The notes below the pieces were generated by a model. That model was not told the DNA's origin, searched no databases, and saw nothing but the letters and a program-made list of their open reading frames with translations. A DNA stretch of 64,000 nucleotides, taken from Macrostomum lignano. Taxonomy: Eukaryota. The DNA is taken from contig NIVC01001608.1 in the NCBI GenBank assembly GCA_002269645.1, forward strand, positions 162,494 through 226,493, read 5' to 3'. The position numbers and the translations under genes are program-made. Shown here one piece after another: positions 13,092 through 60,734 of the stretch (positions within the stretch are counted from its first letter, which is position 1; every line of letters begins with the position of its first letter).

Positions 13092-13446
13092 CTAGAAAAG
13101 TAAAAACTATAGAAAAAGCAGTCAGAAACTGTTGCTGCCACTAGCAGTAGTGTGCTTCTGATGCTGTTCCAAGTGCGTTAAAAATCGAACAAAAGTCAAC
13201 AAGAATCGCAAAATGTTTTTTTTTCTGCCTACAAAGCTGATTAGCATTGTCTAATGATGGCAATTCATTAGAGAAATTTGACTGAAAAGACGAATGAGTC
13301 TGATTGACAAATCCGATTGAAAGCTGCATCTCATCGCAAACTTTGAACTTAAATTTTTAAGCTGACAGGTCTAAACTCACTTGACTTGATTAGAGTTTTT
13401 CCAGAGGCTTAAGAAAGCTAGAATGTGAATTTTTCTTTATTAAAAC

Positions 13447-14133
<687 letters not shown>

Positions 14134-14134
14134 G

Positions 14135-15290
14135 GCAGGATGAGATGTAGCTGGATGAGAGCAGATTTTCTAGCATTCCTGATTAAGCAATCAGAGCATC
14201 TTTGAATATTCAGGATGCTTGTTAGGCTTCTGCTGGCTTCATCAAAGTCGTCTTTAAACGTGCAACGGTGAGCGTAACGGAGGAACTGAGCTTTCAATAT
14301 AACCTTGAATGTTTGCTTTGGTTGAAATGACTCCGGATGCAAGAGCTGGCGTGAATCGGTGGGTTTGAAGTAGATCGAGCACGAAAGTCTCTTTGTGTTG
14401 TTGACTTCGTCAGTCAGACTGACACGGCAGTCCAGGAAGTGAAGCTTCTCTCTGCTGTATTGCACCGTGAGTGGGACGGATTTCCAGGCAGACATAAAGA
14501 TGTTGGCGTAGGATGGCGCAAAGGCCTTTTCCATGCATGTGCCTTTGACTTGAAGATAGCGCGCGTCGTTGAAAACCAAAATCAATTTCGTTGAAGTTAA
14601 TGTCCAGGTGCACAAGTAGATGGTTATCTGGCCTTGAGGTTTGCGGAACTTTTTGAAAGGCATCTCTAATGACGTCCGTCCCCTTATCAGTGGGAATATT
14701 GGTGTACAGGGATTCAACATCCATTGTAACCAGAAAGGCATTTTCGTCTTAGTCAAAAATCAAATGATTGACAGCAGCTTGGAAAGTGGTCCGTGTCTCG
14801 GATGAAGGAGTCTTGTAGGAAGAGATCGATAAATTTGGCTCTTACGTAACTTTCCGAGCTGCAGTCCGAGACGAGATAAAAAATTGCGAGTATTGAAAAA
14901 TGGTTTTAATAATGGCACTGGTCTGGGTGCTCATTGCGAAGTCAAGAGGTTGGTAGAAGGTTCCTGTTGGAGAGCTTCATGATGACTATATTGCTGGCCT
15001 TGTCGGCAGGTTTAATGACGATGCTGCTGTTGCCTCGAAGAGTCTTCAGTGCCATTCTCTGCTGCTCCTGAAGGCTTGGCATGTTGAGTATGATTCTTGG
15101 AATACTGATCTTGTCTAGGATTTCAAAAAAGTCCCCGTGAGAGCGCCACTTGTCCAAGTTGATGTTGGGGATTGAAGCTCGTCCAGAGTAAGGGGTGTTG
15201 ACAAAGTTCTTGCCCAATTCTATAATTTCGGTTTCGCAGTCAAAGAGACGATAATTCGATAAATTCAAGACTTGGCTGCGTGGTCGCATT
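14135..15290 (-). mobile_element. Degenerate Penelope-like retroelement (RT fragment with frameshifts and deletions)
   Basis: Penelope-type RT motifs appear in shifting frames: VLNLSNY..LGKNF..TP, IVIKPADK, SFIRDTDHF, DVESLYTNIP, YLQVKGT.M...APSYANIFM, HFLD, YFKPTDSRQLLH, K.Q.LRY. The YxDD segment is missing and no GIY-YIG domain was seen. Confidence 0.85.
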
Positions 15291-15709
15291 CCTTGCCATA
15301 GACAATATTGAAGACTTTCAAGACGGATCGGTCAGATAGTGTGACACGTGACCCTTCCGGTTGAGATTCTGGGCATGTCGGCTCAATTTGTCTACAGTGT
15401 TTCGGATGCTGCCTGTTGCCATGACATCCCCCGCTGAGTCAAGTGTGTAAATATTTGCCTTCTGAAAAGGCCTTGCGACAATGATTACCGATTTTTGTTA
15501 GCTGCTTGTCGAGGACACCTTCGAATAGTCTCTGCAGGTCATGACAGCCGGCAGGGCAGCCGGACCAATCCCAGCCAGCCCAGGCCGTCTCTCTCGCAGC
15601 TCCCCACCGGGCTTAAAAGCTAACCTGCAGCAGCTGTGTCCAGCGCCCCAGCGGACCTCATCGAACCCTGAAACGCAGCAGCTTCCTCCAAGTCAAGCGT
15701 CGAGAAACA

Positions 15710-16074
15710 ATGAACGCCACTCCGGTTCTCAATGGCAGCGCGCCTGTCGGCGTGGGCGCCACATCTCTTGGCGCCACCGTCCTGGTCTCGGCGCTGTACC
15801 TGGCCATCATGCTGGTGGGACTGTTCGGCAACAGCCTGGTCATCGTCACCATCCTGATGGACAAGAGGATGCGCGCCTCGGTGACAAATTTGTACATCCT
15901 CAACCTGGCCTGCTCCGACCTGCTGTCGTTGCTGCTGGCTCTGGCGGAAATCGGCTTCCGGTTGGCCTCGCAGCACTGGTTCCTCGGGCTGGCCGCCTGC
16001 AAGCTGCTGCGCTTCATCATGACCGCTGCGTTTTATACGTCGGTAATCACCTTGACAACCGTGTGCGTTGAGCG
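15710..16074 (+). CDS. Class A (rhodopsin-like) peptide GPCR exon 1 (TM1-TM3)
   Basis: GN in TM1, TNLYILNLACSD in TM2, ACKL (C3.25), ending CVE-CG|gtgagt. The phase-2 intron falls inside the E/DRY motif. Confidence 0.92.
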
Positions 16075-16122
16075 GTGAGTGCAAGCCGGATTATACGGGA
16101 GCGAATGGCGGGGGGTTTTTGA

Positions 16123-19431: not shown

Positions 19432-19569
19432 TCAGTGTCAGAGGTGATAGAATGAGTGTCAGAGGTGATAGAATGAGTGTCAGAGGTGATAGAATGAGTG
19501 TCAGAGGTGATAGAATGAGTGTCAGAGGTGATAGAATGAGTGTCAGAGGTGATAGAATGAGTGTCAGAG
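19432..19569. repeat. 21/20-bp minisatellite (GAGTGTCAGAGGTGATAGAAT), left part, split by the LTR element
   Basis: The same unit resumes at 27754. Confidence 0.95.
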
Positions 19570-20534
19570 TGTTGTATCCCCCTTCCTCGCTGGCACGGCC
19601 GGGTTGGGCGACGGGTAGCGGTGTCGGGGTTCGGGTACTGGACTGCCCAGGGCTTACGAGCTCGATCGGCGACCCCGAGGCGTACGGACACTTCGGGGGG
19701 AGGTCAAGGTTGAGAAGTCGAGAGAGAGGGGAGGGGCGGCTGTGGGCGGGCGGCCACTCGACAGCCTGGTGAGTCAAGGAAGAGAGAGAGGGCTGCGGGC
19801 GGTCGGCCACTCGACAGCCTGGTGAGTCAAGGAAAAGAGAGAGGGCTGTGGGCGGGCGGCCACTCGACAGCCTGGTGAGTCAAGGAAGAGAGAGAGGGCT
19901 GCGGGCGGTCGGCCACTCGACAGCCTGGTGAGTCAGACTGAGGAGAGAGTGAGAGAGAGAGAGATCAGGAGAGCGACCCGAGGAACACAGGCAATTGTCT
20001 CGACAGCTTACCGGGCCGGGTCGATTATAGCACTCATACACGGGAAGGCCGATCGATTGCAATAAATTGAGTCTTCGCAGTAAGAGACCGTCTCTACGGT
20101 TGATCGCTGGTCACGTTCGTTTATTTATCGCGGTGGGCGCAAATGGGCGCAGGCACGGTGAGAAAAGGGGCGGGGTCTGAGCGTCGCCTTAAATAACGAG
20201 TAAAAAGGGGCAGGGGCGCAAACAAGGGGGGGGAGAAAGGGCTTAAACAATGGAGCTGATTGACAGCTGATTGGCTGCGGCGAGGGAGGGTGGAAGCGCG
20301 CACGGCCAGGGAGAGGGAGAGAGAGCAGAGGCCCAGCCAATCAGCACGGCTAGCCAAAGGGCTAAACAGCCAAGGCGAGAGAGAGAGAGAAAGAGAGCAG
20401 AGGCTCAGCCAAAGGGCTCATAGCTCCAGACTGGCTTGAGCCGGGGGGGGGGGGGTAACAATAATCAACTACCAAAGTCAACAACTATCAAAGTGCACTT
20501 GCACCAGGGGAGCACTGTGACACAGGTCACAACA
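19570..20534 (-). repeat. 3' LTR (965 bp)
   Basis: Direct repeat of 26786-27753, preceded on the minus strand by the PPT. Confidence 0.96.
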
Positions 20535-20545
20535 CCCTCCCCCCT
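20535..20545 (-). promoter_or_regulatory. Polypurine tract
   Basis: AGGGGGGAGGG immediately before the 3' LTR. Confidence 0.9.
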
Positions 20546-20630
20546 AAAAAAAAGAAAACGACGCGCTTTGACTAAATGAAAATGAAAAAAAATGTAATGA
20601 AATGAAACTGAATGAAAGAGACCAAGAGTG

Positions 20631-21374
20631 TCAGGCAGCGGCCGAGAGCGCAGGACAGGGGCCGAGGATGTCGGACAGGCCGAGAACACCGGGCACGGCC
20701 GAGAATGCCGGACTGTGGCCGAAAACGCCGGGCATGGCCGAGAATGCCGGACAGCGACCAAGAATGCCGGGCAGCGGCCGAGGACGCCTGGCATGGCCGA
20801 GAATGCCGGACAGCGGCCGAGAATGCCGGGCAGCGGCCGAGAATGCCGGGCAACGACCGAGAATGCCGGGCAGCGGCCGAGAATGCCGGGCAGCGACCGA
20901 GAACGCCGGGCATGGCCGAGAGTGCCGGACAGCGGCCGAGAATGCCGGGCAGCGGCCGAGAATGCCGAGCTCTTCTTCCTCTGACTGCGTGATTTCACAG
21001 CAGCTCTGAGCAGTCTCCTCGCCGCCGCAACCACCACGCTCGCTTCCTTCCGACTCCCTGTCCTCGTCTGACTCTTCTGTTTCGTCTTCAATCGTTACGA
21101 CAAACTCCTCCGGGACGCACATCCCATCCGGCGGGACAAAATACCGGGCGCACTCGAGCGGGTTGCTAACGGCATCCTGCCCGAACCGGTCGTACAGCGC
21201 TCGTCGAAACGGACACAGCAGGACCGCACTCGCATGCTGCAGCCTCTGGAAATTCTCCGTTCCACCGGGTCCACACTTGTCGGGGTGCCGTCGCAGGCTC
21301 TCACGGCGGTACGCACGTCGCAGCTCCTCCTCCGTCGCGAAGGGGCTGACACCAAACTCGGCGTAGAGGTCCAT
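20631..21374 (-). CDS. J-domain (DnaJ/Hsp40-type) protein inside the retrotransposon, about 247 aa: J domain, acidic tract, repeat-encoded tail
   Basis: MDLYAEFGVSPFATEEELRRAYRRESLRRHPDKCGPGGTENFQRLQHASAVLLCPFRRALYDRFG aligns by eye with the J-domain consensus, including HPD and R..YD..G. Confidence 0.9.
   Translation of the reverse strand: MDLYAEFGVSPFATEEELRRAYRRESLRRHPDKCGPGGTENFQRLQHASAVLLCPFRRALYDRFGQDAVSNPLECARYFVPPDGMCVPEEFVVTIEDETEESDEDRESEGSERGGCGGEETAQSCCEITQSEEEELGILGRCPAFSAAVRHSRPCPAFSVAARHSRPLPGILGRCPAFSAAARHSRPLSGILGHARRPRPLPGILGRCPAFSAMPGVFGHSPAFSAVPGVLGLSDILGPCPALSAAA
20638..20970. repeat. ~20-bp GC-rich repeat (GGCCGAGAATGCCGGGCAGC) in the 3' part of the J ORF
   Basis: Direct observation, about 15 variant copies. 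Confidence 0.88.
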
Positions 21375-21572
21375 GCCCGGAAAGCAGTGCCTGCAACAAC
21401 CACGACTCACTTTTGAGAGCAGGGCAATGGTTCCTTCGAGCCTCTTTGGGGCGCCGATCCTTCATCCCTGATGGCAGGGTTGGGCAGGTGGGACCTCCAC
21501 TGACGGGCCTTAAGAGGGGAAATATATATTTTTGTTTGTGAAGCAGAGGCAATAACACGAGCCCAGTTTTCA

Positions 21573-21812
21573 ATAACGCGGGTGATGACGCAGACGATGC
21601 TTCGAACCAAATGTTGATGACGCAGGTGATGACGCGGATGATGCTTCGAACCAATTATTTATGACACAGGAGATGACGCGGATGATGCTTCGAGCCAATT
21701 ATTTATGACGCAGGAGATGACGCGAATGATGCTTCGAACCACTTATTTATGACGCAGGAGATGACGCGGATGATGCTTCGAACCAATTATTTATGACGCA
21801 GGAGATGACGCG
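21573..21812. repeat. 44-bp tandem repeat (4 full plus 2 partial copies) between pol and the J ORF
   Basis: Unit ATGACGCAGGAGATGACGCGGATGATGCTTCGAACCAATTATTT starts at 21617, 21661, 21705, 21749 and 21793. Confidence 0.93.
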
Positions 21813-21839
21813 ACATTGCGCACGCACTCACGTCCGCTC

Positions 21840-24800
21840 TTAATAATAAACGGGCGTTCCATAACGCTGCGGAACCCTTCGATCCCTCTGGGGTCGACCT
21901 TCGATGACTTCAACTGGCGCTTCCGGCTGCGGCTGCACTCCTGGCTGCTGCACATCCATTGGTTCTCCCTCCTCTCGAACCCGCCCGGAATGTCGCCACC
22001 ATCGCTCCTCATCCTCATCGTCCGATTCCTGCGAGTCCTCCCTGACGGATTCCGTCTCTTGAGCAGGACCTGGGTGGTACCTCCTTGGTGCAGGACGCCG
22101 AGGGCCACCGGTGCCGTCGACCGGGTACTTCCGGTACCGAGGCAGGAGGTTGTTAAAGTGCACCACCTTGATCGGCTTCCGTCGACCTTCCTGTCGAATC
22201 CTATAGCGCGTCTCCGACAGCTTCTCGAGAACTACGGCAGGTCCGGTCCAGGGTGAGTGGAGCTTCGCTTTGGCACCGGCCTTCAACACGGGGTTGTAGA
22301 CGAACACCTCGTCGCCAGCCACGAATTCTCGACCCTTCACCTTCCGGTCGTACCAGTCTTTCTGCACTCGTTGATATGACGTTATTCTCTCACGCACCAC
22401 CCGATGGGCTTCCACGAGCGTCTCCCGCAGGTTCTGGACTTCCTCGCAGTACGGTTCGATGTCCAGTGGGCGCGCCACTCCCAAGTCAACTGGCAGAGAC
22501 ATCTCGCGACCATGCAGAAGGAAGAAGGGTGAGTAGCCGGTGCCGCGGTGCACACTGGAGCGATACGCCATGAGCGCCGGGGCAACGAATTCGTCCCACC
22601 GCCTCTGATCCGGCTCCTTCACCAGGTGCGCCCGGATCACTGCAGTCAGCGTCTTATTGAAGCTTTCCACTTGGCCGTTTCCAGAGGGGTGATAGGCGGT
22701 CGTACGCGTCTTTCGGATATTCAGACTTTCGCACAGCTGGCCGATCAATTGCGACTCGAAATTGGCTCCCTGATCCGAGTGGATTGTCCTGGGGCTCCGT
22801 AGTGACAGACCCACTCCTCGAGCATTGCCCTTGCACAGGTGCTGGCCGTCTGATCTGGCACCGGTACTGCCACTGGCCACTTACTGAACGCGTCCTGCAT
22901 CGTCAGTATGTATTTGTTGCCTCGGACGCTGGTTGGCAGTGGTCCAATCAAATCCACCATCACTCTTTCAAACACATGGCTGCTGGGAATCGGCTCCAAT
23001 GGGGCCTTCCGCCGCATCCCGGGCTTGCTCCGGTTACAGTCGTCACACCTTCGCACAAACTCCTCGACCTCTCGCTTCAAGCCGGGTCTCCAGAATCGGT
23101 TCCTGACTTTCTCCAGAGTCTTTGCTACGCCGAAGTGTCCACCTCCTGGTCCAGAGTGCAGCGTCTGCAGAGCGTCGGGGATCAATTTCTTCGGGAGAAC
23201 AGCCCGCGGTGGGTGACGTCCCAGATCCTTGATGACGAGGGTGTTGTCCACAATTTCCAGCCGAGGCTTTTGTGCCCAGATGGCTCGGGTCGTTGGTGAC
23301 GCACCCCGAGGTGGCTCTTCGTTTGCTCGGCCGGCGTGCATCGACTGGTAAACTGGAGCGATGTCGTTGTCCACAGCTTGTGCTGCTGCCAGCTCATCTC
23401 GGCTGAGCAACCCGAGCAGCGTCGTTACCCTGACCCCGGGGAGGTCATCAGTCCGGCACGACGGGCAGTTATCCATTTCGGGATGTCGTCGCGGCGGCTT
23501 GCGTGACAGCGCGTCCGCATTCTGATGACGCGCCCCTGGCCGATGCTCCACTGCGAAGTCGAATGGCGCCAACCTCTCCATCCACCGAGCCAACTGGCCT
23601 TCCGGCTGCCTCATACTTCGGAGCCACTGCAGACTTGCGTGGTCGGTGCGCACCCGGAACCTCCGGCCAAGTAGATAGTACCGGAACCTCTCTGCGAATG
23701 TCACCAGCGCCAGGAGCTCGATTCGTGTCGTGCAATAGTTGAATTCGGCCCCTTGCAGACGCCGACTCCCGTACGCAATAACCCGCTCTGACCCGTCTTC
23801 TTGTACCTGCGACAAGACTGCTCCGAGACCCTGTCGGGTACTTCCATCGGTATCCAAGATGAACTCACCAGCCGTGGGGTCGAAGTTCGGGTAGGCCATC
23901 ACGCGGCAACCGGTCAATTCTTCTTTCAGCTTTTTGAAGGCCTCATCGTGTTCCTCTCTCCAACTGAACGGCTTGTCTTTCTTTGTCAGATCAAAAAGTG
24001 GTGCAGCGACTATCGAGAATTCTGGTATGAAGTTTCGGTAGTAACCAGCCAGACCCAGGAACGACTGAAGGTCTTTTGCATTTCTTGGAATGCTCCAGTC
24101 ACGGACTTCCTTGATCTTCTCCGGGTCGACATCGATTCCGTCCTTTGACACGACGTGGCCAAGGAATTTGACCTCATCGGCCAGGAATCTGCACTTAGAT
24201 GGCTTTAGCCTCAAGTTGGCTGCGCGCAGGCGCTGGAATACCGCCTCGAGATTCGTTAGATGCTCGCTGACAGTTCGGGACCAAATGATGATATCGTCGA
24301 TGTAGACGAGCGCCATTTTCCACAGAAGGTCGTGTAGTACCATATTCATCAACCTTGTGAATGTCGCCGGCGCATTGGTCAATCCGAAGGGCAGCACCTT
24401 GAACGCGAATTGCCCCCGATGCGGAATGACAAAAGCAGTCTTTTCTTGATCCTCCCTTTTGACCTTAACTTGCCAATAGCCGGAGCAAAGGTCGAGCGTC
24501 GAAAATACAGCCGCACCTCCGAGCGCTTCAAGTGCGTCATCGACACGCGGGATTGCTATGGCGTCCTTGACAGTTCGTTGATTCAACTCTCTGTAGTCGA
24601 CACACAGTCGCAGTTCCCCATTCTTCTTACGGACACAGACCACTGGCGAACTCCACGGCGATTGGGTCGGTTCAATCATCTTCGTTGCCAAAAGCTCGTC
24701 GATTTGTCGGTCGACTTCGCCGCGCCAATGTGGCGGTAGCCGTCGCGGAGGCTGTTTTACGGCTGTTCCGGTGGTCTCAATTTCATGCTGCACGATGTCC

Positions 24801-25837
24801 GTCGTCCCGAGGCGCGCTGTACTCTCTGCGAAAACATCTGCGTATCGATTCACCAATCTTAGGAAACTCGCTTTGTCTGCCCCCGTGAGCTGCTTGGAGC
24901 CGTGCTGGTTCAGTGCCGCCTCTGGGTCCCATGGATCGCAGCTGGGTCGTAAAACCGACGCTTGCTCTTCGATGCTGGCTACCAGAACCTCTTGAGCCGG
25001 ATCTGATGGTCGAAACCAGCCGATGACAGCTCCCTTCCGCAGCCGCAGCTCGGAGTCCGTGACATTCGCGAAGTGAACTGGTAGGGTGTTGCCCTGCTGG
25101 ATGAGGCAGACGCTCCTGGCTAGCATTGGTCTCTCATCGCTCTTCAGTTTTTCGTCTGGCTCGGCGACGCCGAGCACTCCGGAATTCTGTGTCGCTGTTC
25201 TCCGAATCCTGGCTGAGACGGTCCGTTCGTGATTGGCCGGAATGATCAAGTTTTCGTTCAGGTACAACCGGCAGACGACTGGTTTGTGCTTGGTCTCTCG
25301 GATTGGCACACGTGAACCGTTCACGCGGAAAACTCCTCCGGCGAAATCGATTTGGCACCGGTGGCGGCGTAAGAAGTCGGTGCCTAGCAACAGTTCGTAG
25401 CCGACCCCTTGGACCACCGCAATTGGCGTCTGTAAAGTTTCTGATCCGAACTGTAGGGGAAGCGACGCGCATCCTAACACATTCATGGGAGTTCCGTTCG
25501 CTGAGATCAGGTGGGTTTCCGAAGGGCTGAGTTCAACTCGAACCGACTTGCTCAACTGCCGCCAGGTCCTCTCGTTCACCAGCGACATGACCGAGCCCGA
25601 ATCCAACAGACACGGCAACTCAATCTCGCCAATTTTTACCGACACGTAGATTGACACGGGATTAAAAGCTGTTGCAGGTTGATCTCTATCTCTTGAGCAG
25701 TCCGCCGGACATCCTGCTGCACGTCGCTCCGGGGCTGCATCTTCGTCTCGGGTTGGGGCCTCTACTGTCTCGGCGGAACTCCCTCGCCCCTGCGGAAGTT
25801 CCCCTTGCCGTTTCCCTGTTGCTGACGGGTTGGGCAG
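21840..25837 (-). CDS. pol: pol (protease, RT, RNase H, integrase) in the -1 frame to gag, with a 1-nt frameshift at about 22791-22794
   Basis: Motifs LLDSGS, RLCVDYRELN, YIDD, LDTDGS..GLGAVLSQ, H..H..C..C zinc finger, VDLIGP, HSDQG, NGQVE, GYSPF. The integrase is split where GCCCCA lacks one C. Confidence 0.93.
25755..25816 (-). promoter_or_regulatory. Candidate -1 programmed ribosomal frameshift signal
   Basis: G GGA AAC in the gag frame (25816-25810), a 7-nt spacer, then stem GGAACT/AGTTCC. The pol frame is open only from 25837. Confidence 0.75.
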
Positions 25838-26742
25838 TTAGTCGCGATGTGCCCTGGCTTGTTGCAGAAGAAGCAGCGAATTCCTCCCGTTCGTCGAGGC
25901 TTCTGATGGTCGCCTTCGTCGGAGTCGGTCGGTCGAGCTGCGGCGCTGCTATGCGGTTCCGCTCTCAGCGACTCGAGCTGAACTACTTTGCCTTGAAGCT
26001 GCCTCACCAGTTTCTTCAACTCCTCGAGCTCTTTGTCCTTTTCTTGGGAGTAGGCTCCATCCTCCCGAGGCACAGATTCCGCCGCGCCGCTCACCACGAA
26101 GACTCCTCGGTGGCCGCTGCCAGTTGCTCCAGCCGATCTCGGTCCCTTCGCCGCCTTGGACGCCGCCTCGAGCTGCCTCACCGCGCGTTGTGCTGCCACC
26201 AGACCTTCGGGCTGCTGCAGGTAGAGCTTCTCTCGCTGGAGGTCGGAGAGTCTCACCCCTTGCATGAAGCGATCCTTCGCGAGGTCGTCCTGCAGCTCGG
26301 CAGTTGCCGCCGGGTAGGCACAGCGCACCAGTTCAAGGAGAGCATCTGCGTAGGCCTCCAACGACTCGCCATCCTTCTGATCTCGGGTTTTTAGCTCGAC
26401 CTTGCTGTCCTGCTCTGTCCGGTACCGGGAGAAGCGAGCCTCCAACCGGGCGGTGAATCCCTCGTAGTCCAGCGGATCCACAGGATCGTCGGGTCCCGGC
26501 AGGTTCAGATTATCGACCGCAGCGTACGCCGTAGCGAGATCCAGCATGCTCATCAAGTGCTCGCGGCGATGCTCCTCGTCAATCTCGGCGGAGTCGCAAT
26601 AAGCGTTGAAAGAGCGCAGCCAGAGTCGAAAATTCATGCTTGACGTGTACTTCACGGGCTTCGGGAGTCTCGGTGGCTGGGCTGGTCCATCCGCTCACAG
26701 ACGCTCGGCTAGCAGCCGAATCAGTTCGTCCACATTCGCCAT
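25762..26742 (-). CDS. gag: gag (capsid-like region plus CCHC zinc knuckle), with an in-frame TGA at codon 16
   Basis: ATG at 26742 gives MANVDELIRLLAERL*ADGPAQPPRLPKPVKYTSSMNF... in the same frame as the 297-aa ORF. Knuckle CFFCNKPGHIATNC. Confidence 0.88.
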
Positions 26743-26766
26743 GACAGCTCACAAGCAAACTGAGCA

Positions 26767-26784
26767 GTCCCTGTTCGGGCGCCA
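26767..26784 (-). promoter_or_regulatory. Primer binding site complementary to tRNA-Lys(UUU)
   Basis: TGGCGCCCGAACAGGGAC lies 1 nt after the 5' LTR and is the 18-nt complement of the tRNA-Lys3 3' end. Confidence 0.92.
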
Positions 26785-26785
26785 A

Positions 26786-27753
26786 TGTTGTATCCCCCTT
26801 CCTCGCTGGCACGGCCGGGTTGGGCGACGGGTAGCGGTGTCGGGGTTCGGGTACTGGACTGCCCAGGGCTTACGAGCTCGATCGGCGACCCCGAGGCGTA
26901 CGGACACTTCGGGGGGAGGTCAAGGTTGAGAAGTCGAGAGAGAGGGGAGGGGCGGCTGTGGGCGGGCGGCCACTCGACAGCCTGGTGAGTCAAGGAAGAG
27001 AGAGAGGGCTGCGGGCGGTCGGCCACTCGACAGCCTGGTGAGTCAAGGAAAAGAGAGAGGGCTGTGGGCGGGCGGCCACTCGACAGCCTGGTGAGTCAAG
27101 GAAGAGAGAGAGGGCTGCGGGCGGTCGGCCACTCGACAGCCTGGTGAGTCAGACTGAGGAGAGAGTGAGAGAGAGAGAGATCAGGAGAGCGACCCCGAGG
27201 AACACAGGCAATTGTCTCGACAGCTTACCGGGCCGGGTCGATTATAGCACTCATACACGGGAAGGCCGATCGATTGCAATAAATTGAGTCTTCGCAGTAA
27301 GAGACCGTCTCTACGGTTGATCGCTGGTCACGTTCGTTTATTTATCGCGGTGGGCGCAAATGGGCGCAGGCACGGTGAGAAAAGGGGCGGGGTCTGAGCG
27401 TCGCCTTAAATAACGAGTAAAAAGGGGCAGGGGCGCAAACAAGGGGGGGGAGAAAGGGCTTAAACAATGGAGCTGATTGACAGCTGATTGGCTGCGGCGA
27501 GGGGAGGGTGGAAGCGCGCACGGCCAGGGAGAGGGAGAGAGAGCAGAGGCCCAGCCAATCAGCACGGCTAGCCAAAGGGCTAAACAGCCAAGGCGAGAGA
27601 GAGAGAGAAAGAGAGCAGAGGCTCAGCCAAAGGGCTCATAGCTCCAGACTGGCTTGAGCCGGGGGGGGGGGGGGTAACAATAATCAACTACCAAAGTCAA
27701 CAACTATCAAAGTGCACTTGCACCAGGGGAGCACTGTGACACAGGTCACAACA
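26786..27753 (-). repeat. 5' LTR (968 bp)
   Basis: TGTTG...CAACA termini. Minus-strand TATTTAA at 27412-27406, AATAAA at 27342-27337, CCAAT and GC boxes. Identical to the 3' LTR except for three 1-nt homopolymer length differences found by eye. Confidence 0.96.
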
Positions 27754-28298
27754 AGAGTGATAGAATGAATGTCAGAGGTGATAGAATGAGTATCAGAGGT
27801 GATAGAATGAGTGTCAGAGGTGATAGAATGAGTGTCAGAGTGATAGAATGAGTGTCAGAGGTGATAGAATGAGTGTCAGAGTGATAGAATGAGTGTCAGA
27901 GGTGATAGAATGAGTGTCAGAGGTGATAGAATGAGTGTCAGAGTGATAGAATGAGTGTCAGAGGTGATAGAATGAGTGTCAGAGGTGATAGAATGAGTGT
28001 CAGAGGTGATAGAATGAGTGTCAGAGGTGATAGAATGAGTGTCAGAGGTGATAGAATGAGTGTCAGAGTGATAGAATGAGTGTCAGAGGTGATAGAATGA
28101 GTGTCAGAGTGATAGAATGAGTGTCAGAGGTGATAGAATGAGTGTCAGAGTGATAGAATGAGTGTCAGAGGTGATAGAATGAGTGTCAGAGGTGATAGAA
28201 TGAGTGTCAGAGGTGATAGAATGAGTGTCAGAGGTGATAGAATGAGTGTCAGAGGTGATAGAATGAGTGTCAGAGGTGATAGAATGAGTGTCAGAGGT
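27754..28298. repeat. 21/20-bp minisatellite, right part
   Basis: About 26 units directly after the LTR end and TSD. Confidence 0.95.
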
Positions 28299-33790: not shown

Positions 33791-34856
33791 TGGCTAGACT
33801 AGCAATCCATTCTGTTCCATCATCCCTAATTGGCTAGACTAGCAATCCATTCTGTTCCATCATCCCTAATTGGCAAGTCTAGCAATCCATTCTGTTCCAT
33901 CATCCCTAATTGGCTAGTCTAGCAATCCATTCTGTTCCATCATTTCTAATTTGCTAGTCTAGCAATCCATTCTGTTCCATCATCCCTGATTGGATAGACT
34001 AGCAATCCATCCTGTTCCATCATCCCTAATTGGCTAGTCTAGCAATCCATTCTGTTCCATCATCCCTAATTGGCTAGTCTAGCAATCCATTCTGTTCCAT
34101 CATCCCTGATTGGCTAGTCTAGCAATCCATTCTGTTCCATCATCCCTGATTGGATAGACTAGCAATCCATCCTGTTCCATCATCCCTAATTGGCTAGTCT
34201 AGCAATCCATTCTGTTCCATCATCCCTAATTGGCTAGTCTAGCAATCCATTCTGTTCCATCATCCCTGATTGGCTAGACTAGCAATCCATCCTGTTCCAT
34301 CATCCCTAATTGGCTAGTCTAGCAATCCATTCTGTTCCATCATCCCTGATTGGCTAGTCTAGTAATCCATTCTGTTCCATCATCCCTGATTGGATAGACT
34401 AGCAATCCATCCTGTTCCATCATCCCTAATTGGCTAGTCTAGCAATCCATTCTGTTCCATCATCCCTGATTGGATAGACTAGCAATCCATCCTGTTCCAT
34501 CATCCCTAATTGGCAAGTCTAGCAATCCATTCTGTTCCATCATTCCTAATTTGCTAGTCTAGCAATCCATTCTGTTCCATCATCCCTGATTGGATAGACT
34601 AGCAATCCATCCTGGTCCATCATCCCTAATTGGCAAGTCTAGCAATCCATTCTGTTCCATCATCCCTAATTGGCTAGTCTAGCAATCCATTCTGTACCAT
34701 CATCCCTGATTGGATAGACTAGCAATCCATCCTGTTCCATCATCCCTAATTGGCAAGTCTAGCAATCCATTCTGTTCCATCATCCCTAATTGGCAAGTCT
34801 AGCAATCCATTCTGTTCCATCATCCCTAATTGGCTAGACTAGCAATCCATCCTGTT
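33791..34856. repeat. 40-bp minisatellite, about 26 copies, filling GPCR intron 2
   Basis: Unit CTAGCAATCCATTCTGTTCCATCATCCCTAATTGGCTAGT/A. Confidence 0.95.
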
Positions 34857-34875
34857 CCCCATCCCCCCCCAACAG

Positions 34876-35470
34876 GAGCCAGGCCGTTCCTAGCTCCGCT
34901 GCAATGAGCGGCCCAAGTGCCATCACTGTTCAGCAGCAGCCGCAGCAGCAGCAGAAGCCGAAGCGTCGACAGAAGCGCAGCGACAATCCAGCGATAGCCG
35001 GCCGGCAGCAGGTGGTGAAGATGCTGATTGCCTGCGTGATTGTGTACTTTGTGTGCTACCTGTCCAAGCTGCTGGAGGTGGTGTTCCGCATCGCCGGCTA
35101 CCAGCCGATCCGGCCGGACACGGCCAAGACGGTCGTGATGGCGATGATCTACGCCAATTCGGCCGTTAATCCCCTGCTGTACACGGCGTTTAGTCGCAAT
35201 TTCCGGCGTCAGTTCCGGTTGACATTTAGCCGCTGCGGCTGCTGCCGGTCGGAGCTTCGAGCTCAGGGCCGCGGCGGCGGTGGCGGCGGCGCCAGGCAGA
35301 TGCTGGGCGGCCGCAGTGGGTTCGGCGGGGGCACCACGCTGCCAGCCGCCTCCAACTGGCACGCCAGTGACGCGGTGGAGTCCGCCGTCGGCCCGGAAGC
35401 AGCTGCAGGTGCCCGGGCGGAAGTGCAGATCCCGATGCTGCCGCTGCGGGCCACCGGCCGACTGGATTGA
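34876..35470 (+). CDS. GPCR exon 3 (ICL3, TM6, TM7, tail); whole protein about 442 aa, neuropeptide-receptor-like
   Basis: Acceptor caacag, in frame. Contains RQQVVKMLIACV, NSAVNPLLY (NPxxY), helix 8 SRNFRRQF and CGCC. RxxVVKML is typical of TRH/pyrokinin/ghrelin-type receptors, but the subtype is not assignable by eye. Confidence 0.9.
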
Positions 35471-48274: not shown

Positions 48275-48825
48275 ACACCCGAGCTAGCTCCCATCCAATC
48301 AGCACCCGAGCTAGCTCCCATCCAATCAGCATCAAACTGGCTCCCACCCAATCAGCATTGAACTAGCTCCCATCCAATCACCATCCGAGCTAGCTCCCAT
48401 CCAATCAGCATCAAACTGGCTCCCATCCAATCAGCATTGAACTAGCTCCCATGCAATCAACATCAAACTGGGTCCCATCCAATCAGCATTGAACTAGCTC
48501 CCATCCAATCAGCATCGAACTAGCTCCTATCCAATCAGCATCGAGCTAGCTACCTTTAATCAGCATCGAACTAGCTCCCATCCAATCAGCATCGAACTAG
48601 CTCCCATCCAATCAGCATCGAAATAGCTCCCATCCAATCAGCATCGAACTAGCTCCCATCCAATCAGCATCGAAATAGCTCCCATCCAATCAGAATCGAA
48701 CTAGCTCCCATCCAATCAGCATCGAAATAGCTCCCATTCCAATCAGCATCGAACTAGCTCCCATATAATAGGCATCCGAACTAGCTCTCGTCCAATCAGT
48801 ATCGAGCTATCTTCTATCCAATCAA
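48275..48825. repeat. 26-bp minisatellite (GAACTAGCTCCCATCCAATCAGCATC) in ClC intron 3
   Basis: Direct observation, about 20 variant copies. Confidence 0.9.
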
Positions 48826-48851
48826 AGCTGATGTTCCGCATTATTTTCCAG

Positions 48852-49577
48852 TGGTATCCTTGGCCGGAGCTAATTTTCGATGCGAGCGCCACAGATCCGC
48901 AGAACTATGCACTGCAGTACTCGCTGTACGTCACCTGGTCTCTTCTGTTTGCCCTGCTGACTGCCACTCTGGTCCGCAGCCTGGCCCCGTACGCCTGCGG
49001 CTCGGGCATCCCGGAGATTAAGACCATCCTATCCGGATTTGTCATTCGCGGCTACCTGGGCTGGTGGACTCTGCTAGTGAAATCTCTGGGTATTATGCTG
49101 GCCGTGGCATCGGGCCTCAGCCTGGGCAAGGAGGGCCCCATGGTGCACATGGCGGCCTGCTGTGGCAACATCATAGCCAGGCTGTTTCCCAAGTACAACC
49201 GCAACGAGGCCAAGAAGCGGGAGGTTCTGTCTGCCGCGGCGGCAGCCGGGGTGAGCATCGCATTCGGTGCCCCGCTTGGCGGCGTGCTGTTCAGCCTTGA
49301 AGAGGCCAGCTACTATTTCCCACTGAAGACTCTGTGGCGCAGCTTCTTCTGCAGCATGGTGGCAGCTTCGGTGCTGAAGCTGGTTAATCCGTTTGGCAAC
49401 GATCATCTCGTGCTGTTCGCTGTCAATTACCGCTCTGCATGGTCGGCCCTGGAGGTTGGCCCGTTTGTACTTTTAGGCATTCTGGGCGGCCTGTTTGGGG
49501 CCGGTTTTGTCAAAGCGAACGTCTGGCTGTGCCGAAGGCGGAAGCTGGGAGCGCTAGGGCGACACCCCATCGCTGAG
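48852..49577 (+). CDS. CLCN3: ClC exon 4 (selectivity and gating motifs)
   Basis: [13 protein letters not shown] (gating Glu), GGVLFSLEE (proton Glu typical of antiporters). Confidence 0.96.
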
Positions 49578-49631
49578 GTTGGTTAGAAGGTTCAGATGCT
49601 TTATCTTTCGTGTCTTCGTGCCGTCATTTAG

Positions 49632-50606
49632 GTGCTTCATCATCCAGATGCTTCATCATTCAGATGCTTCATCATTCAGATGCTTCATCAATCAGATGCT
49701 TCATCATTCAGATGCTTCATCATTCAGATGCTTCATCATTCAGATGCTTCATCATTCAGATGCTTCATCATTCAGATGCTTCATCATTCAGATGCTTCAT
49801 CATTCAGATGCTTCATCATTCAGATGCTTCATCATTCAGATGCTTCATCGTTCAGATGCTTCATCATTCAGATGCTTCATCATTCAGATGCTTCATCATT
49901 CAGATGCTTCATCATCATTCAGATGCTTCATCATCATTCAGATGCTTCATCATCATTCAGATGCTTCATCATTCAGATGCTTCATCATTCAGATGCTTCA
50001 TCATTCAGATGCTTCATCATTCAGATGCTTCATCATTCAGATGCTTCATCATTCAGATGCTTCATCATTCAGATGCTTCATCATCATTCAGATGCTTCAT
50101 CATTCAGATGCTTCATCATTCAGATGCTTCATCATTCAGATGCTTCATCATTCAGATGCTTCATCATTCAGATGCTTCATCATTCAGATGCTTCATCATT
50201 CAGATGCTTCATCATTCAGATGCTTCATCATTCAGATGCTTCATCATTCAGATGCTTCATCATTCAGATGCTTCATCATTCAGATGCTTCATCATTCAGA
50301 TGCTTCATCATTCAGATGCTTCATCATTCAGATGCTTCATCATTCAGATGCTTCATCATTCAGATGCTTCATCATTCAGATGCTTCATCATCATTCAGAT
50401 GCTTCATCATCATTCAGATGCTTCATCATCATTCAGATGCTTCATCATTCAGATGCTTCATCATTCAGATGCTTCATCATCATTCAGATGCTTCATCATT
50501 CAGATGCTTCATCATCATTCAGATGCTTCATCATTCAGATGCTTCATCATTCAGATGCTTCATCATTCAGATGCTTCATCAATCAGATGCTTCATCATTC
50601 AGATGC
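49632..50606. repeat. 16-bp minisatellite (TCAGATGCTTCATCAT) with +CAT variants in ClC intron 4
   Basis: Direct observation, about 60 copies. Confidence 0.95.
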
Positions 50607-50708
50607 TTTGTCTGATTGATGTGATTTTAAATAATGTCCGTTTCTTTCTACTCACTCGCAGGCAGTAGAGAAAACAGCATTTGAAAATCAGCCAATTCAC
50701 TTTACCAG

Positions 50709-50990
50709 GTGGCAGCAGTGGCCAGCCTCACAGCCCTGGCGGCCTTCCCTAATCCCTATACCCGGATGGGGACGGCCCGCCTTGTCCGCCTGCTGTTCAG
50801 CCGCTGCGGTCCCGAGGATGTCAGCGAACTGTGCGACTTTGGCGCCGTGGCGGTCAACGGTACGGCGACAACTGGCACAGGCGCCGCCGTCGTGGTGGCC
50901 GGCGATGCCCGCCTTGATGCAGCCTTGTGGAAGCTGAGCATTGCCTACCTGTTCAAAATTGTGGCCACCGTGTTCACCTTTGGCATTAAG
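50709..50990 (+). CDS. CLCN3: ClC exon 5
   Basis: AFPNPYTRM...LFSRC...FKIVATVFTFGIK|gt. Confidence 0.92.
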
Positions 50991-51277
50991 GTGATTCAGA
51001 AAATTTTGCCTTCATAGAGTATTTAACACAACATATCGTCTGAAAACTTGGCAATTTGGTATCGAAATTTATTACATGCTGATATCCTGTTTACACTACT
51101 GCCGATTCAGTACAAGTAGTAGCAGAAGAACTAGAGCTAAAGTTCAAAGAAAAGTTTTTATTAAAATTTAAATTAAAAACACTCATTGTCACAGGAAGAC
51201 GCAGTATGAATATGATAGAGCGGTCACAAAGAATGTCCATTCGCTTTTCAAGGCAAGCCCTGTTCATGCATATTAAG

Positions 51278-51620
51278 TAGCCCCTGACCGTTGCTGCCCA
51301 CAACTGTCCAATCCGTGTTTATTTAGTAGTCCCTGACCCACCCTTCACCTCCAATCCATGTTCATTTAGTTCCTGACCGCCCTGCTCATCTCTTCAATCC
51401 AGGTCTATTTAATAGTCCCTGACTGCCCTCTTTACCTCTTCAGTCCATGTTTATTTAGGAGTCCCTGACCGCCCTCTTCACCTCTCCAATCCATGTTTGT
51501 TTAGTAGTCCCTGACCGCCCTCTTCACCTCTCCAATCCATGTTTGTTTAGTAGTCCTTGAGCGTCAGGTTTTAAATCCATGTCTGCATGTATTTAGTATT
51601 CCTTGACGTCCCCTCTGCCC
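51278..51620 (+). repeat. ~46-bp degenerate repeat x~7 ending at the ClC exon 6 acceptor
   Basis: Unit AGTAGTCCCTGACCGCCCTCTTCACCTCTCCAATCCATGTTTGTTT. Confidence 0.85.
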
Positions 51621-51624
51621 GCAG

Positions 51625-52243
51625 GTCCCCTCCGGCCTGTTCATTCCCTCCCTGGCTGTCGGTGCCATCGCCGGTCGCATTGTTGGCAGCCTGCTTGAGC
51701 AGCTGGCCGCGCCCAACGCCGCCTATTTCCCATTCAACCGGTTGTGCAGCGCGGCCGCGGTGGCGCAGGGCCAGCCGTGTGTCAACAGCGGCCTGTACGC
51801 CATGGTTGGCGCAGCGGCCGCTCTTGGCGGCGTGACCCGCATGACGCTGTCTCTGGTGGCCATCATGCTGGAGCTGACCGGCGGCCTTGAGTACAGCCTG
51901 CCGCTGATGATCGCCGCCCTCACCAGCAAGTGGGTCGGCGACGGCCTCAGCGGCGGCGGCGGCATCTACGAGGCGCACATCCGGCTGAACGGCTACCCGT
52001 TCCTGGCCAGCTGGGAGCGGCCGGCAGCCGATGCGGCAGCCGCTGATGTGGACGACGCTTCCGCCCTTGCTGGCGACGTGATGCGCCGGCCGTTGCGGGT
52101 GCTGCGCCAGGCTGAAGACACTGTCGACGAGATCAACCGGCTGCTTGCCGAGTGCCAAGTGAATGGCTTTCCGGTGGTGCTATCAGCCGATTATCACTAT
52201 CTGATAGGATTTGTTACTAGGCGGGATCTGGTGATGGCCATTG
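51625..52243 (+). CDS. CLCN3: ClC exon 6 (GLFIP, helix R, CBS1)
   Basis: [56 protein letters not shown]. Confidence 0.95.
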
Positions 52244-52348
52244 GTGAGGCTTTCACTGTTCTCACTTGTGACTCTACTCTAACAAACCTCTGTTAATCTT
52301 CATTCTATTTAGAAACCCAACTAATTTCTATGAATTCCTTGCTAATTG

Positions 52349-57335: not shown

Positions 57336-57483
57336 TGCACATACAATTGAGTGGCAAGTAGTTTGCCGATTTCGAGCAGGAATTCATCTGATTCTATTCA
57401 TATATACTACAAGTCAACAAAAAATTTCTACCAAATTAAGAGATCAGTAGGGTGAAAAGGGTTATCCAGAACTTAGTCCTCAC

Positions 57484-60400
57484 CGTTTTCCTTTGCCATC
57501 GACATAGGACTTTTCCCGCACCATGGCGCTGATCTCCGTGTCGTCCAGCAACTTTTGTTGCTTCTGTAAAAATGTCACCTGCTGTTGTTGTGGCTGCTGC
57601 TGTTGCTGCTGCTGCGGCTGTCCGGTGACACTTCCGCCGCTTGCTCCATTCTCATCCAGTGTTGTTTTTTCCTTATCCAGCTCTTTTATGGCTAGTGGCT
57701 CCGGCATGGACTTTGGATCAACGAGCACATCAATCGGCACCTTTAGCGGCCCGAACGAGTCCTCATTGTATAGGCTCCACTCGGTGGATTGGCCAAAGGT
57801 GCCAACGTACTCGCCTCGGCGCGTCCAAATTCGCACGGTGAAATCCTCGGACGCTGTGACTACAAAGACTCGCTTCTGCATCAGCGTCACCACGTCTACT
57901 TGGCTGACAGTTTCCGTATGGGCGCGCCAGCGGAACAGCAGCTCCGGGCAGAGGCTCTCGGGACCGTGCAGCGCGTACTCGTAGATGCTCCAGATGGAGA
58001 CGTGGCCGAACCGGTCTCCGGTAACCAGGATCGTGTCATTGACGTCGACGCTCATGGCGGAGACCATGTGGCCGTGGCCGGGGTGGTTCTGAAACTGCGA
58101 GTACAGCTTGCCGCCCTGGTAGATGTTCCACAGGTGAATGCGACCCCTGGGTCCGGAGGCCAGGAGGCTCGCCGCCTCTCTGTTGCCCGCCCTGGTGCGC
58201 AGGAACAGCACGCGCGTCACCGACAGGTCGCCATCAAGGCACTCGTCCTCGTAGTCTGACGGCGGCGGCGGTGGTGGGATTTTGCAGTAGACGTGGCCGC
58301 TCACCGTGTTCCAGACTATGATGCTGCCGTCGTAGGAGCTGGTGGCCAGGTGGTTGGGCGGGCTGGACGCCACGCTCAGGATGTCCTCGGTGTGCCCTCG
58401 CAGCTTGTCGTCTTTCCAGTAGTTCTCCGGGTACTGCACAGACTGAACGGCCTCGCCGCAGTCGTCCAAGAACAGGCTGATTCTGCGGTCCCAGCCGACA
58501 GCGACAATAAAGCGGTTCTTGCTGACCTCCATGTACAGAACCGCCGTGACCTCGGAGCGGCTGTGCCGGTCGCTCGATCGCAGGTGCAGCTCGCGCAGGC
58601 AGTGGCCGTTATTGTAATTCCAAACCCGGATGCTGCCAGCCCGGGAGCCAGTAACCAGGCGGCGGCCTGTGAAGTCCAGGCAGAGGCAGGTGGTGGCCGA
58701 GCCTTCGTGGCTGGTGAATTCAAACACCTTTTTGCCATTCTCCACCTCCCAGACCTTCACTACGGAGTTCTCTGAAGCGCTGATGACGTGCTTAAAAGTC
58801 GGATTGTAAATCGCGCAGGTGACGGCCTCCTTGTGCGTCAGAGGGATGTCCGCCTGCACCTTCTGCTTCACCTTGATGTTGAGGATGGACACAACGTCTG
58901 TGGTGGCCAGCATCAGGGATTTGCTCTGCGGTGAATAGTGAAAGCTCTGCAAGTCGCCTCGCACTTTGTGACCCTTAGGACGGATAGTGAGCAGGCGGTT
59001 CTGGTCCAGGATGTCCCACACCTCGATGCACTTGTCCTGATAGACGCTGAATAGCCGGTTCTCGTCAGCCGCAATAGTCAGGTAGACAATTGGCGCACTG
59101 TGGCCTTGAAGGGTGCCGATCGGCTTCGAATTGACGTACGGATTCCAGATGCGAATAATGCGGTCCATCCCGCCCGTGACCAGGATGTTCTTCTGCTTGG
59201 AGATGTCGAACGTGCGAACCCCTTTGTGCACATAAAAGACTGTCTGGTCGGTGGCTTTGCGCAGCCGAGGCTGCATGATCGGCGAGATGAAGCTGCCTGG
59301 CTGAGCCTTCGGCGCCTGGACGGCACCGGCTCCCGCTCCAGCTGCAGCCATCGCGTCGCTGTCGCGCGCGGCCGCCCCCGAGCCATCGTGGTGATCCACA
59401 AGCGTCGACCCAATGCTGCAGCCGATCACCAAAGCCGTCGACTCGTCGTTCGAACAGCTGACCACCTGACGCAGAAATTCGTCGAATCGGATCTGGGCCA
59501 CCCAGTCGTTGTGCACCTTCCAGCGGATGTACTCGACCAGGCCTCCACTGTCCAGTGCGCGCTCCAGCGTCACCGCCGCGATGCCTTCGCTTTTCGGCTT
59601 CTTTTTCCAAGTTCGAAGACTTTCGCCAGTCTTGTGCAGCACAAGGATGTTCACGCAGCCGTTTTCGTCGCCCCAGAACAGCATCGACTCGTTGGAGTCG
59701 GTCTTCTTGTGACAAGTGTAGTCAAGGTTGAGGGGCACCGAGTACAGGCCGGTCAGCTTGCAGTACGGCTCAAAGTTCGACAGCTCAAAGAACTCTAACT
59801 CGCGATCGCCGGTAGACACGACAATCTTTGTGAACTCGTTGATGATCATAAAGTGAGTTATCCACTTCTGCTTGGTTCGCTGCGTCTGTTCCGGCGTAAT
59901 AATCGATCTTTTTCGCTTTAATTCGAGTTGCGAGTTCCAGAAAGACACGAGACCGTCTGAGCTGGCGCAGGCGAAACTGCCGTCGCTGAGGCCGACGATA
60001 CGCACGATGGCGTCTCGGTGGATTGTGGTCTTTACCCTGGCGGGCAAGATAAACTTGATCTCCTTGTCCTTGAAGTATTGGCTCTCTTTCTCTTGGAATT
60101 CCAACTGCATGTAGGTGCAGAACTCGTCCCAGCTGATGTAGCCGTTGCTGCTCCAGTCGATCTTCTGGAAGAGAGCGTCCAACTGGTTAAGTTTCGCGGT
60201 CGGCAAGTTGAGCAGGCGCCTCATCTCTTCCTTGAACATCTTCAAATCGATTGACTCGTTCGAGTATTGAGCGAAGATCTTCTTGACCTTCTTCAGCTTG
60301 GCCAGGTCGATGTGCTCTTCGACTTTGCCGCGCAGAATTGAGCCAATTTTTTCGTACTCGACCCGGTTGAGAAAGTACTTGTCTATGGCCTGCAGGTTGT

Positions 60401-60734
60401 CCGTCCGGTCAATGGTCGGCCTGCGCTGCTGCCGAAAGGTCCTCGCCTCGGCACGAGGCGATCGCGGACGTCGGGCAGAGCAACGCGCCTCGGCCGAGCT
60501 GACGACGCTGCCAGCGACCTCAGCTACTGACAGTGCGCCGCCTGCTGTCATCGGCCTGTCAACCAGCTTCGGTTGCATCGACTGTCGCTCGTCCAGCAGG
60601 CCAGTCACGTAGTGCTTTGGATGCGTCTCCAGATAGCCGGAGGCGGTAGCCGGGCGCTGCAGGACGCCGTTTACCAGCATGCTGCTGGGCTTCAGTACCG
60701 GCCCGGGCAGCTGGGTGTGCTCGCGACTCAGCAT
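57484..60734 (-). CDS. WDR49: EF-hand plus WD40 repeat protein exon 1 (WDR49/CFAP337, WDR64/WDY family)
   Basis: 1083 codons. EF-hand-like LFQKIDWSSNGYISWDEF followed by many WD repeats (TGGMDRIIRIW, GHSAPI, GHTEDI, TASEDFTVRIW). Ends AAA CG|gtgagg, so the TGA in the ORF track is intronic. The symbol is a family-level best guess. Confidence 0.75.

Follow-up and report, generated by a model that had tools for sequence, protein, structure and literature searches.

A conserved J-domain accessory gene in one clade of Ty3/gypsy retrotransposons from the flatworm Macrostomum lignano

One clade of Ty3/gypsy retrotransposons, found in Macrostomum and in hosts outside it, carries a conserved accessory gene, ORF3, between pol and the 3' LTR. 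From its sequence and structure models, the product is predicted to be a class-C-type J-domain protein with three parts: the J domain, a long acidic disordered linker and a basic five-helix domain. An earlier note on this DNA had proposed an element-borne J-domain accessory gene, and that proposal is now strongly supported by multiple copies with different TSDs and by at least five deeply split families. We consider it highly probable that ORF3 is functional and selected.

The insertion in the window and its copies

The window is the whole stretch that was analysed, 64,000 nucleotides of M. lignano contig NIVC01001608.1. Its minus strand from 27753 to 19570 is a complete Ty3/gypsy-type insertion of 8.2 kb. 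By Pfam, gag is followed by pol in the order PR-RT-RNase H-integrase, which is the Ty3/gypsy arrangement, and the other hallmarks of the group are present: paired TG...CA LTRs, a PBS that we take to be of the tRNA-Lys type, a PPT and a short TSD. From the 5' end of the element, the features are:

27754-27757, with its partner at 19566-19569: TSD CTCT, within a 21-bp minisatellite
26786-27753, minus strand: 5' LTR, 968 bp, TG...CA
27337-27345, minus strand: TATA-like ATAAATAAA, also containing AATAAA, 29 nt upstream of the spliced-leader-like stretch
27275-27316, minus strand: AUG-less host spliced-leader exon copied into the LTR; it agrees with genomic SL RNA genes at 41 of 42 nt
27224-27228, minus strand: candidate 5' splice donor GTAAG, inferred from sequence only
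26767-26784, minus strand: PBS, identical in family L061 and with one mismatch in L064
25762-26742, minus strand: gag (weak Retrotrans_gag/PNMA match, zf-CCHC)
21840-25837, minus strand: pol, order PR-RT-RNase H-integrase, stop at 21840
21573-21813: 44-nt tandem repeat in the pol-ORF3 spacer
21391-21396, minus strand: candidate splice acceptor TTGCAG, 16 nt upstream of the start codon of ORF3
21105-21374, minus strand: J domain of ORF3 (residues 1-65, HPD present), then a conserved segment that ends near residue 90
20967-21104, minus strand: first half of the ORF3 acidic linker; a deletion starts at 20967
20614-20966, minus strand: 3' non-coding 20-nt tandem repeat, read in frame only owing to the deletion
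20535-20545, minus strand: PPT, with a T-tract just before it
19570-20534, minus strand: 3' LTR

Alignment of the LTRs (27753-26786 with 20534-19570) over 968 columns gave 0 mismatches and three single-base gaps (99.7% alike). As there is not a single mismatch between them, the insertion is very young. The earlier description of an ATG-initiated, sense-strand ORF between pol and the PPT/3' LTR, enclosed by near-identical LTRs and a TSD, was borne out. The ATG at 21374 opens a 247-codon minus-strand frame that runs to 20631, between the pol stop (21840) and the PPT (20545-20535). The complete J domain that had been read from the letters was also recovered, with residues 2-62 matching PF00226 (E 1e-12, 48.4 bits against a cut-off of 27.8), an intact HPD and an acidic tract behind.

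The lesions reported in gag and pol are both present, as an in-frame stop at 26697-26695 and a frameshift near 22786, respectively; contigs of four sequencing runs disagree with the window at both sites. ORF3 itself had been taken to be intact, but this was a misreading. Alignment to copy L006 shows that about 645 bp are missing from the window copy after 20967. The deletion takes codons 137-293, comprising the rest of the linker and the basic C-terminal domain (157 residues), together with the stop codon, and the last ~110 residues of the open frame are the 3' non-coding 20-nt tandem repeat read through. All three genes are damaged in this copy.

When the spacer-plus-ORF segment was searched against the genome at the DNA level (30 candidates scored), it yielded, beside the window copy, 19 near-identical J-bearing copies, some of which are possibly allelic as the assembly may be redundant. 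The family protein has 293 aa, and 12 of the 19 copies keep the ATG, the HPD and the full 293-aa frame. The other seven are damaged: one lacks the ATG, one reads HPY, one has a 10-residue deletion over the HPD and four are frameshifted. In two further copies the J part is gone. Matching 4-bp TSDs, each different, were found in four of six other copies checked (one of the remaining two was tandem, one mismatched). These different TSDs therefore mark independent insertions with ORF3 inside. Several insertion flanks were AT-rich or microsatellite.

The element lies between coding pieces of a rhodopsin-family GPCR (15617-16078 and 34838-35470, plus strand), antisense to them, and probably sits in a GPCR intron. 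A perfect three-unit HSE was not found in 19570-27753, and an Rfam search of the LTR gave nothing useful. Elsewhere in the window are CLC chloride-channel exons (48705-52296, plus strand), an intron-free frame of 1,097 codons that begins EF-hand-like and contains WD40 repeats (57480-60773, minus strand), and decayed fragments that by eye resemble a Penelope-type reverse transcriptase (13440-15331, minus strand; no Pfam match in the two frames scanned).

Distribution of ORF3 and selection on it

A PF00226 search of the genome, in which 150 of 336 candidates were scored, returned J-domain matches in groups of equal score: at least 22 places at 68.8 bits, at least 21 at 60.6 bits, and smaller groups. 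One member was fetched from each of four score groups (L061-L064). All four proved to be gypsy elements in which gag and pol are followed by a J-domain ORF ahead of the 3' end. Best local alignments among the five families (these four and that of the window) gave identities of 58-64% for RT-RH and 24-35% for ORF3. The RT and ORF3 trees of the five families share the same unrooted topology, weakly supported. Long in-frame tandem repeats lie between gag and protease in two of the fetched elements (L061:6000-7000 and L064:5759-6006).

An RT tree built with 32 database pols, hand-picked from 120 listed and including no named reference RTs, united the five families with M. lignano P0107 and two JGI pols (SH-aLRT 97); the sister clade includes cnidarian elements. 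The PBS of this element, taken to be of the tRNA-Lys type, would fit Osvaldo; Gmr1 has integrase before RT, an order absent here.

When a profile of the C-terminal domain was run against 1.84 billion representatives, it matched eight proteins: two are gene models of M. lignano in which pol and ORF3 are fused, and the other six are Logan or JGI proteins. P0004, an outside homologue, is at best 46% identical to anything within this genome; therefore, the ORF3 family reaches other lineages, P0004 being the one homologue so compared. A JGI pol (P0096) and a JGI ORF3 (P0007) come from one source, both from contigs of length 7,008, and both are closest to family L064; it is likely that they lie on one contig. 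Word-based homologue searches returned no match with the first 127 aa of ORF3 and, with alignment A3, only two full-length members, the remainder being J-only matches.

We then probed seven integrase-positive loci without a J match for ORF3. L095 (family F) carries a diverged ORF3, with a J-like part lacking HPD (PF00226 E 0.002), a weak C-domain match (E 0.003-0.004) and a TatD-like module, the fusion being noted at L095:720-2201; family F has nine 571-codon frames of this kind. L102 and L103 combine an HPD-bearing J domain with the C-domain and the TatD-like module, split over two frames, and at L096 and L106 the TatD-like part alone remains. The families that carry the TatD-like module are sisters of those without it. 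ORF3 was absent within 2.2 kb of the integrase at L097, L099, L100 and L101. L098 was set aside as uninformative on absence, as another retroelement-like ORF interrupts the locus. The probed loci indicate that the C-domain is the most constant part of ORF3, that the HPD is the rule with one exception, and that the gene can be lost.

Two other sets of frames were encountered in these searches. J-domain matches at 56.2 bits lie in open frames of up to 1,449 codons (G000:C575:335814, C3488:57828 and 89405, C1744:6568, C1901:447), which could belong to another mobile element or to a large host gene. An F-box/LRR ORF just downstream of a gypsy integrase (L100:1378-2199 and L105; microsatellite-interrupted) was rejected as an element gene, being present at only two near-identical places; it is probably a host gene or a single capture.

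Selection was estimated from codon alignments of ten further loci, each set against the family closest to it and restricted to pieces aligned in frame. The dN/dS of ORF3 was 0.13-0.37 in nine of ten pairs and undefined in the tenth, in which dS was saturated. These ratios are well below 1, the value near which the earlier note would have placed a neutral capture. For the J part alone, the ratio was 0.08-0.14 in the four divergent pairs that allowed a measurement. The unsaturated pair L088/L062 gave 0.16 (CI 0.04-0.49); for the L089 pair the value was 0.37, its CI included 1, and third positions showed no excess. Third codon positions were the most variable in nine of the ten pairs, and HPDK was kept in all ten J-bearing rows of alignment A3. 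ORF3 is under purifying selection, of roughly the same order of magnitude as that on the integrase end of the same loci.

These data bear on the explanation that ORF3 is a neutral passenger, a piece of host DnaJ that was captured a single time and has travelled with the element without a function. Damage to ORF3 in seven of the 19 other copies and in the window copy would suit a passenger, as would the broken or deleted ORF3 of family G and some subfamilies; however, single-copy damage strikes gag and pol too. Further against a passenger are dN/dS ratios far below 1 with saturated synonymous sites, the HPDK motif in ten of ten rows and a C-domain conserved at ~30% identity. The selection signal largely refutes this explanation, to which we give almost no credence.

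Predicted protein and expression signals

AF2, run with five sequences, produced a confident J part (1-90), a low-confidence linker and a confident C-domain (179-292), the last built of five helices and reaching pLDDT 91 and pTM 0.83 when modelled alone. In all nine proteins compared, the C-domain was basic (net +6 to +16, pI 9.6-11.8) and the linker acidic (net -9 to -47; 27-41% D/E). The same nine contained no strongly hydrophobic segment (highest 19-residue hydropathy 0.94-1.48), and Pfam found no env family in ORF3; thus, the product is not an errantivirus-like membrane fusion glycoprotein with a transmembrane segment. The C-domain matched no Pfam family and nothing in PDB by Foldseek at E 0.001. 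Its best VIA score, Z 8.6, was to cobalamin-cap helical bundles and is no higher than such bundles usually give, and Atlas matches were all under 0.9.

PF00226 scored above its cut-off in the five families and in the four outside proteins scanned; family F has lost the HPD. Among structures, those of the DNAJB1/Sis1 type scored best against the J domain (E 9e-14). A weak resemblance to DNAJC5/CSP had been suspected from the letters, but that comparison scored far lower (4e-8). Class A/B Hsp40 proteins have a G/F-rich region and a DnaJ_C client domain behind the J domain; in ORF3 the linker is acidic, and neither PF01556 nor PF00684 gave a match. Set in a tree with 14 host J domains as possible donors, the J domains of the elements were not monophyletic; their monophyly was not rejected either (p-AU 0.345). 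The J domain described at the outset stands. What that reading had missed is the basic domain at the C-terminus, the variants with a chromodomain or a TatD-like module, and the family without an HPD.

The chromodomain occurs in the linker of the L062 (family C) ORF3 (PF00385 E 1e-12), its best matches being Swi6/HP1/CBX chains, and an outside protein, P0008 (76% identical), also has one. PF00385 was absent from the pol of the window element, L061, L062 and L063. At the third aromatic position, aligned with the F/Y of HP1/Swi6 that we take to be a cage residue, the L062-type chromodomain has Val or Leu, and from these residues it is uncertain whether it would read methyl-lysine. The TatD-like module matched PF01026 at E 1e-7 in L096 and L103 and fell below cut-off in L095. 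By eye, against what we presume to be the TatD catalytic motifs, the module appears to be substituted at several catalytic positions.

Chromoviruses are gypsy elements whose integrase carries an HP1-like chromodomain at its C-terminus as a fusion, and this chromodomain is thought to pick the chromatin site. In the elements described here, by contrast, the chromodomain lies inside ORF3 between the J and basic domains, and pol has none. ORF3 could then be an integration aid, a separate factor for intasome targeting or disassembly, in which the chromodomain or basic domain picks the site and Hsp70 removes the integrase after strand transfer. The family C arrangement, the DNA-binding-like charge of the C-domain and the AT-rich or microsatellite flanks of several insertions agree with such a role, but a chromodomain in one family only does not, and we find the role doubtful.

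The basic domain and TatD-like module could instead bind small RNAs, and RNAi loading depends on chaperones, as stated in the available part of PMC5985592. ORF3 might accordingly suppress small-RNA defence, as a decoy that diverts Hsp70/Hsp90 from Argonaute or Piwi loading or by sending Hsp70 to unload the complexes. A simple decoy, however, needs no conserved C-domain or chromodomain, and we judge this explanation improbable.

Host Hsp40/Hsp70 activate hepadnaviral RT, and ORF3 might similarly be a chaperone of the element's own RNP or particle. Its C-domain would bind the element's genomic RNA or a Gag-RNA complex, and its J domain would bring Hsp70 for assembly, uncoating or RT activation. 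Consistent with this are the pairing of basic C-domain and acidic linker in all members, the TatD-like nuclease-fold module in families F and G, and the retention of the gene with pol over deep splits, with RT and ORF3 giving the same, weakly supported, unrooted five-family topology. On the other side, an HP1-like chromodomain has no obvious role in a cytoplasmic particle, the related gypsy families L097, L100 and L101 have no ORF3 within 2.2 kb of integrase, and family F has lost the HPD. On balance we consider a particle chaperone unlikely.

Sequence around the ORF3 start was compared across families for expression signals. An acceptor-like AG is found at or near the ATG in six of six families. 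YTNCAG, given as the top trans-splice acceptor motif of M. lignano in the available text of PMC8629364, occurs within 25 nt of the ATG in four of six families, compared with 12 of 345 background ATGs, the length of this search interval having been chosen post hoc; an AG within 1 nt occurs in four of six and 77 of 345, respectively. Cer1 of C. elegans produces a spliced and SL1-trans-spliced subgenomic RNA (PMC3315495, in the portion available). From the acceptor motif near the ATG and the Cer1 precedent, we infer a subgenomic ORF3 mRNA. Run contigs, which drop rare forms, listed no splice joints at the candidate acceptor or donor. Contigs from four runs, three of them presumed to be RNA and one of unknown kind, cover the stretch 20967-27753, which may or may not reflect transcription. 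Two apparent signals were rejected: three joints to 27275, with sides of 20-22 nt, were read as host SL-bearing contigs with chance matches rather than element splicing, and the huge depth at 27096-27322 was read as host spliced leader rather than element RNA.

The LTR reproduces the M. lignano spliced leader, as published, over 33 of its 35 nt and then diverges, losing the terminal AUG; the copy recurs in the 3' LTR (20058-20099, core 20090-20058, minus strand). The hallmarks of an SL RNA gene (terminal AUG, GTAAG donor, intron hairpins, Sm site) are absent in the LTR and present in L067 and L068. The ATAAATAAA box is, by its sequence, a probable promoter and poly(A) signal, and since the spliced-leader stretch follows this TATA-like box by 29 nt, the stretch probably marks the RNA 5' end. 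Searching the genome with the spliced-leader pattern gave 134 matches and, among the 100 listed, many were paired 7-8 kb apart on contigs that hold the window's family. For L061-L064, whose LTRs were covered only in part, the sequence that was fetched did not contain the stretch. The simplest origin is capture through a trans-spliced RNA. This route is suggested for parasitic flatworms, whose LTR and LINE elements contain partial leaders (PMC12582326, available part), and a spliced leader in an LTR is not new in kind.

Further spliced-leader loci were noted. L069/L070 (G000:C2400, 6.7 kb apart) form a second LTR-like pair with unrelated flanks and a spliced-leader exon that keeps its AUG, which suggests repeated capture. 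SL RNA genes occur in arrays with ~11.3 kb spacing (L067 and L068 on G000:C3830 and C4525, and series on C1211-C1214, C3672 and C4853), and the SL RNA gene at L066 has a changed 5' end.

A possible nuclear role, precedents and significance

A J domain places Hsp70 beside a client picked by the rest of the protein. The modules found in ORF3 are of nucleic-acid and chromatin types, not membrane or capsid ones, and this moves weight from particle assembly or RT activation to a chromatin- or nucleic-acid-tethered role. We tentatively favour, at somewhat less than even confidence, a nuclear, nucleic-acid-tethered Hsp70 adaptor that counters silencing. ORF3 would be made from its own spliced or trans-spliced subgenomic mRNA, through the acceptor before its ATG, and would act in trans. 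The basic domain, with the chromodomain where present, would tether it to nucleic acid or chromatin in the nucleus, where the J domain would activate host Hsp70. A repressive complex, whether heterochromatin or small-RNA silencing factors on the element's loci, would thereby be removed or remodelled, and ORF3 would be an anti-silencing or trans-activating factor. The polyomavirus T-antigen J domain strips Rb from E2F, and the proposed role of ORF3 is logically alike.

A more specific version, which we regard as possible but unlikely, is that of a modular counter-defence adaptor. Hsp70 would be brought to heterochromatin or small-RNA silencing complexes at the element's loci and would dismantle them; the basic domain would be the constant nucleic-acid anchor, with the chromodomain and TatD-like module as targeting parts swapped in an arms race. 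In the window's family this adaptor would be paired with the captured AUG-less spliced leader, mimicking host mRNA at the RNA 5' end.

Several observations weigh against an anti-silencing role. The chromodomain is present in only one of five families. Family F keeps the gene without the HPD, and Hsp70 recruitment is thus dispensable there. L096, L097, L099 and L106 have no ORF3 or its TatD-like part only. Judged by its charge, the basic C-domain fits RNA binding as well as DNA binding. Finally, SILENZIO, the host chromatin J protein cited below, represses rather than activates (PMC8616336, available part).

The nearest precedents share parts of this design. In the available text of PMC5408684, the bdelloid rotifer LTR elements Vesta and Juno have, where env would lie, a separate ORF3 whose domain was captured and is of host type (GDSL esterase, DEDDy exonuclease). 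Such ORF3s are typically expressed by way of spliced transcripts, and DnaJ is not mentioned in that text. The flatworm ORF3 differs in having a J domain, in being of one type ancestral to its whole clade, and in being modular. Burro/GYPSM1, a planarian giant gypsy element and so likewise a flatworm one, carries host-derived regulatory domains thought to interfere with host pathways (PMC6431247, available part). Those domains (BIR, BCL2, MATH, ankyrin, SUMO-like, env) are mostly in a giant polyprotein, with no J domain named in that part, whereas the element described here is 8.2 kb long with a stand-alone ORF3.

Among viruses, polyomavirus T/t antigens are J-domain proteins (PMC1945078, available part). 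Our fold search matched giant-virus, phage and baculovirus J proteins in the J domain only, with a whole-query TM-score of at most 0.24. Like the viral J proteins, ORF3 joins a J domain to a putative client-targeting domain in a selfish element and would serve to aim host Hsp70; unlike them, it is carried by an LTR retrotransposon and has a C-domain that is unrelated as far as tested. With respect to silencing, PMC8616336, in the part available, describes SILENZIO with MBD5/6 in Arabidopsis, a chromatin-tethered J protein that acts with HSP70 to control TE silencing and is a host repressor. It also describes VANC21 of VANDAL21, a TE-encoded suppressor of silencing that we liken to ORF3 by function, although VANDAL21 is a DNA transposon and VANC21 is not described there as a J protein.

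A 2025 catalogue of M. lignano LTR retrotransposons lists Mag, CsRN1, Gmr1/Osvaldo and Mdg3 groups (PMC12801592, available part), and the five ORF3 families are very probably already in it by their RT. Its main text, as available, mentions no J domain, Hsp40, DnaJ, chromodomain, ORF3 or chaperone, and in the available part of supplement 2 DnaJ appears only in gene-expression rows. One of these, MligTCv3c-15711.0, is heat-upregulated and annotated with a DnaJ domain only, at a score of 65.2, and the L061 ORF3 scores 65.3 bits; we note it as a lead only. The heat-inducible Gmr1/Osvaldo family id38 of the same source differs from the window's family in its LTR start and its 338-bp LTR. No LTR retrotransposon with a J-domain gene was found in the literature covered, which did not extend to the M. 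lignano classification of Biryukov et al. 2020, Repbase, Dfam or GyDB.

An accessory gene in an LTR retrotransposon is usually env or a gene whose function is unknown. ORF3 is old, selected and clade-wide, and its J domain names Hsp70 as the likely partner. It adds a protein domain without a Pfam family, and it explains the pol-DnaJ fusions in some automatic gene models of M. lignano (P0001, P0002). The swappable HP1-like chromodomain and TatD-like modules point to chromatin or nucleic-acid targets. The resistance of animal LTR elements to silencing becomes testable in a host with transgenesis and RNA-seq resources (PMC12801592, available part). If the proposed role is true, an animal LTR element would here encode an anti-silencing protein that is powered by a chaperone.
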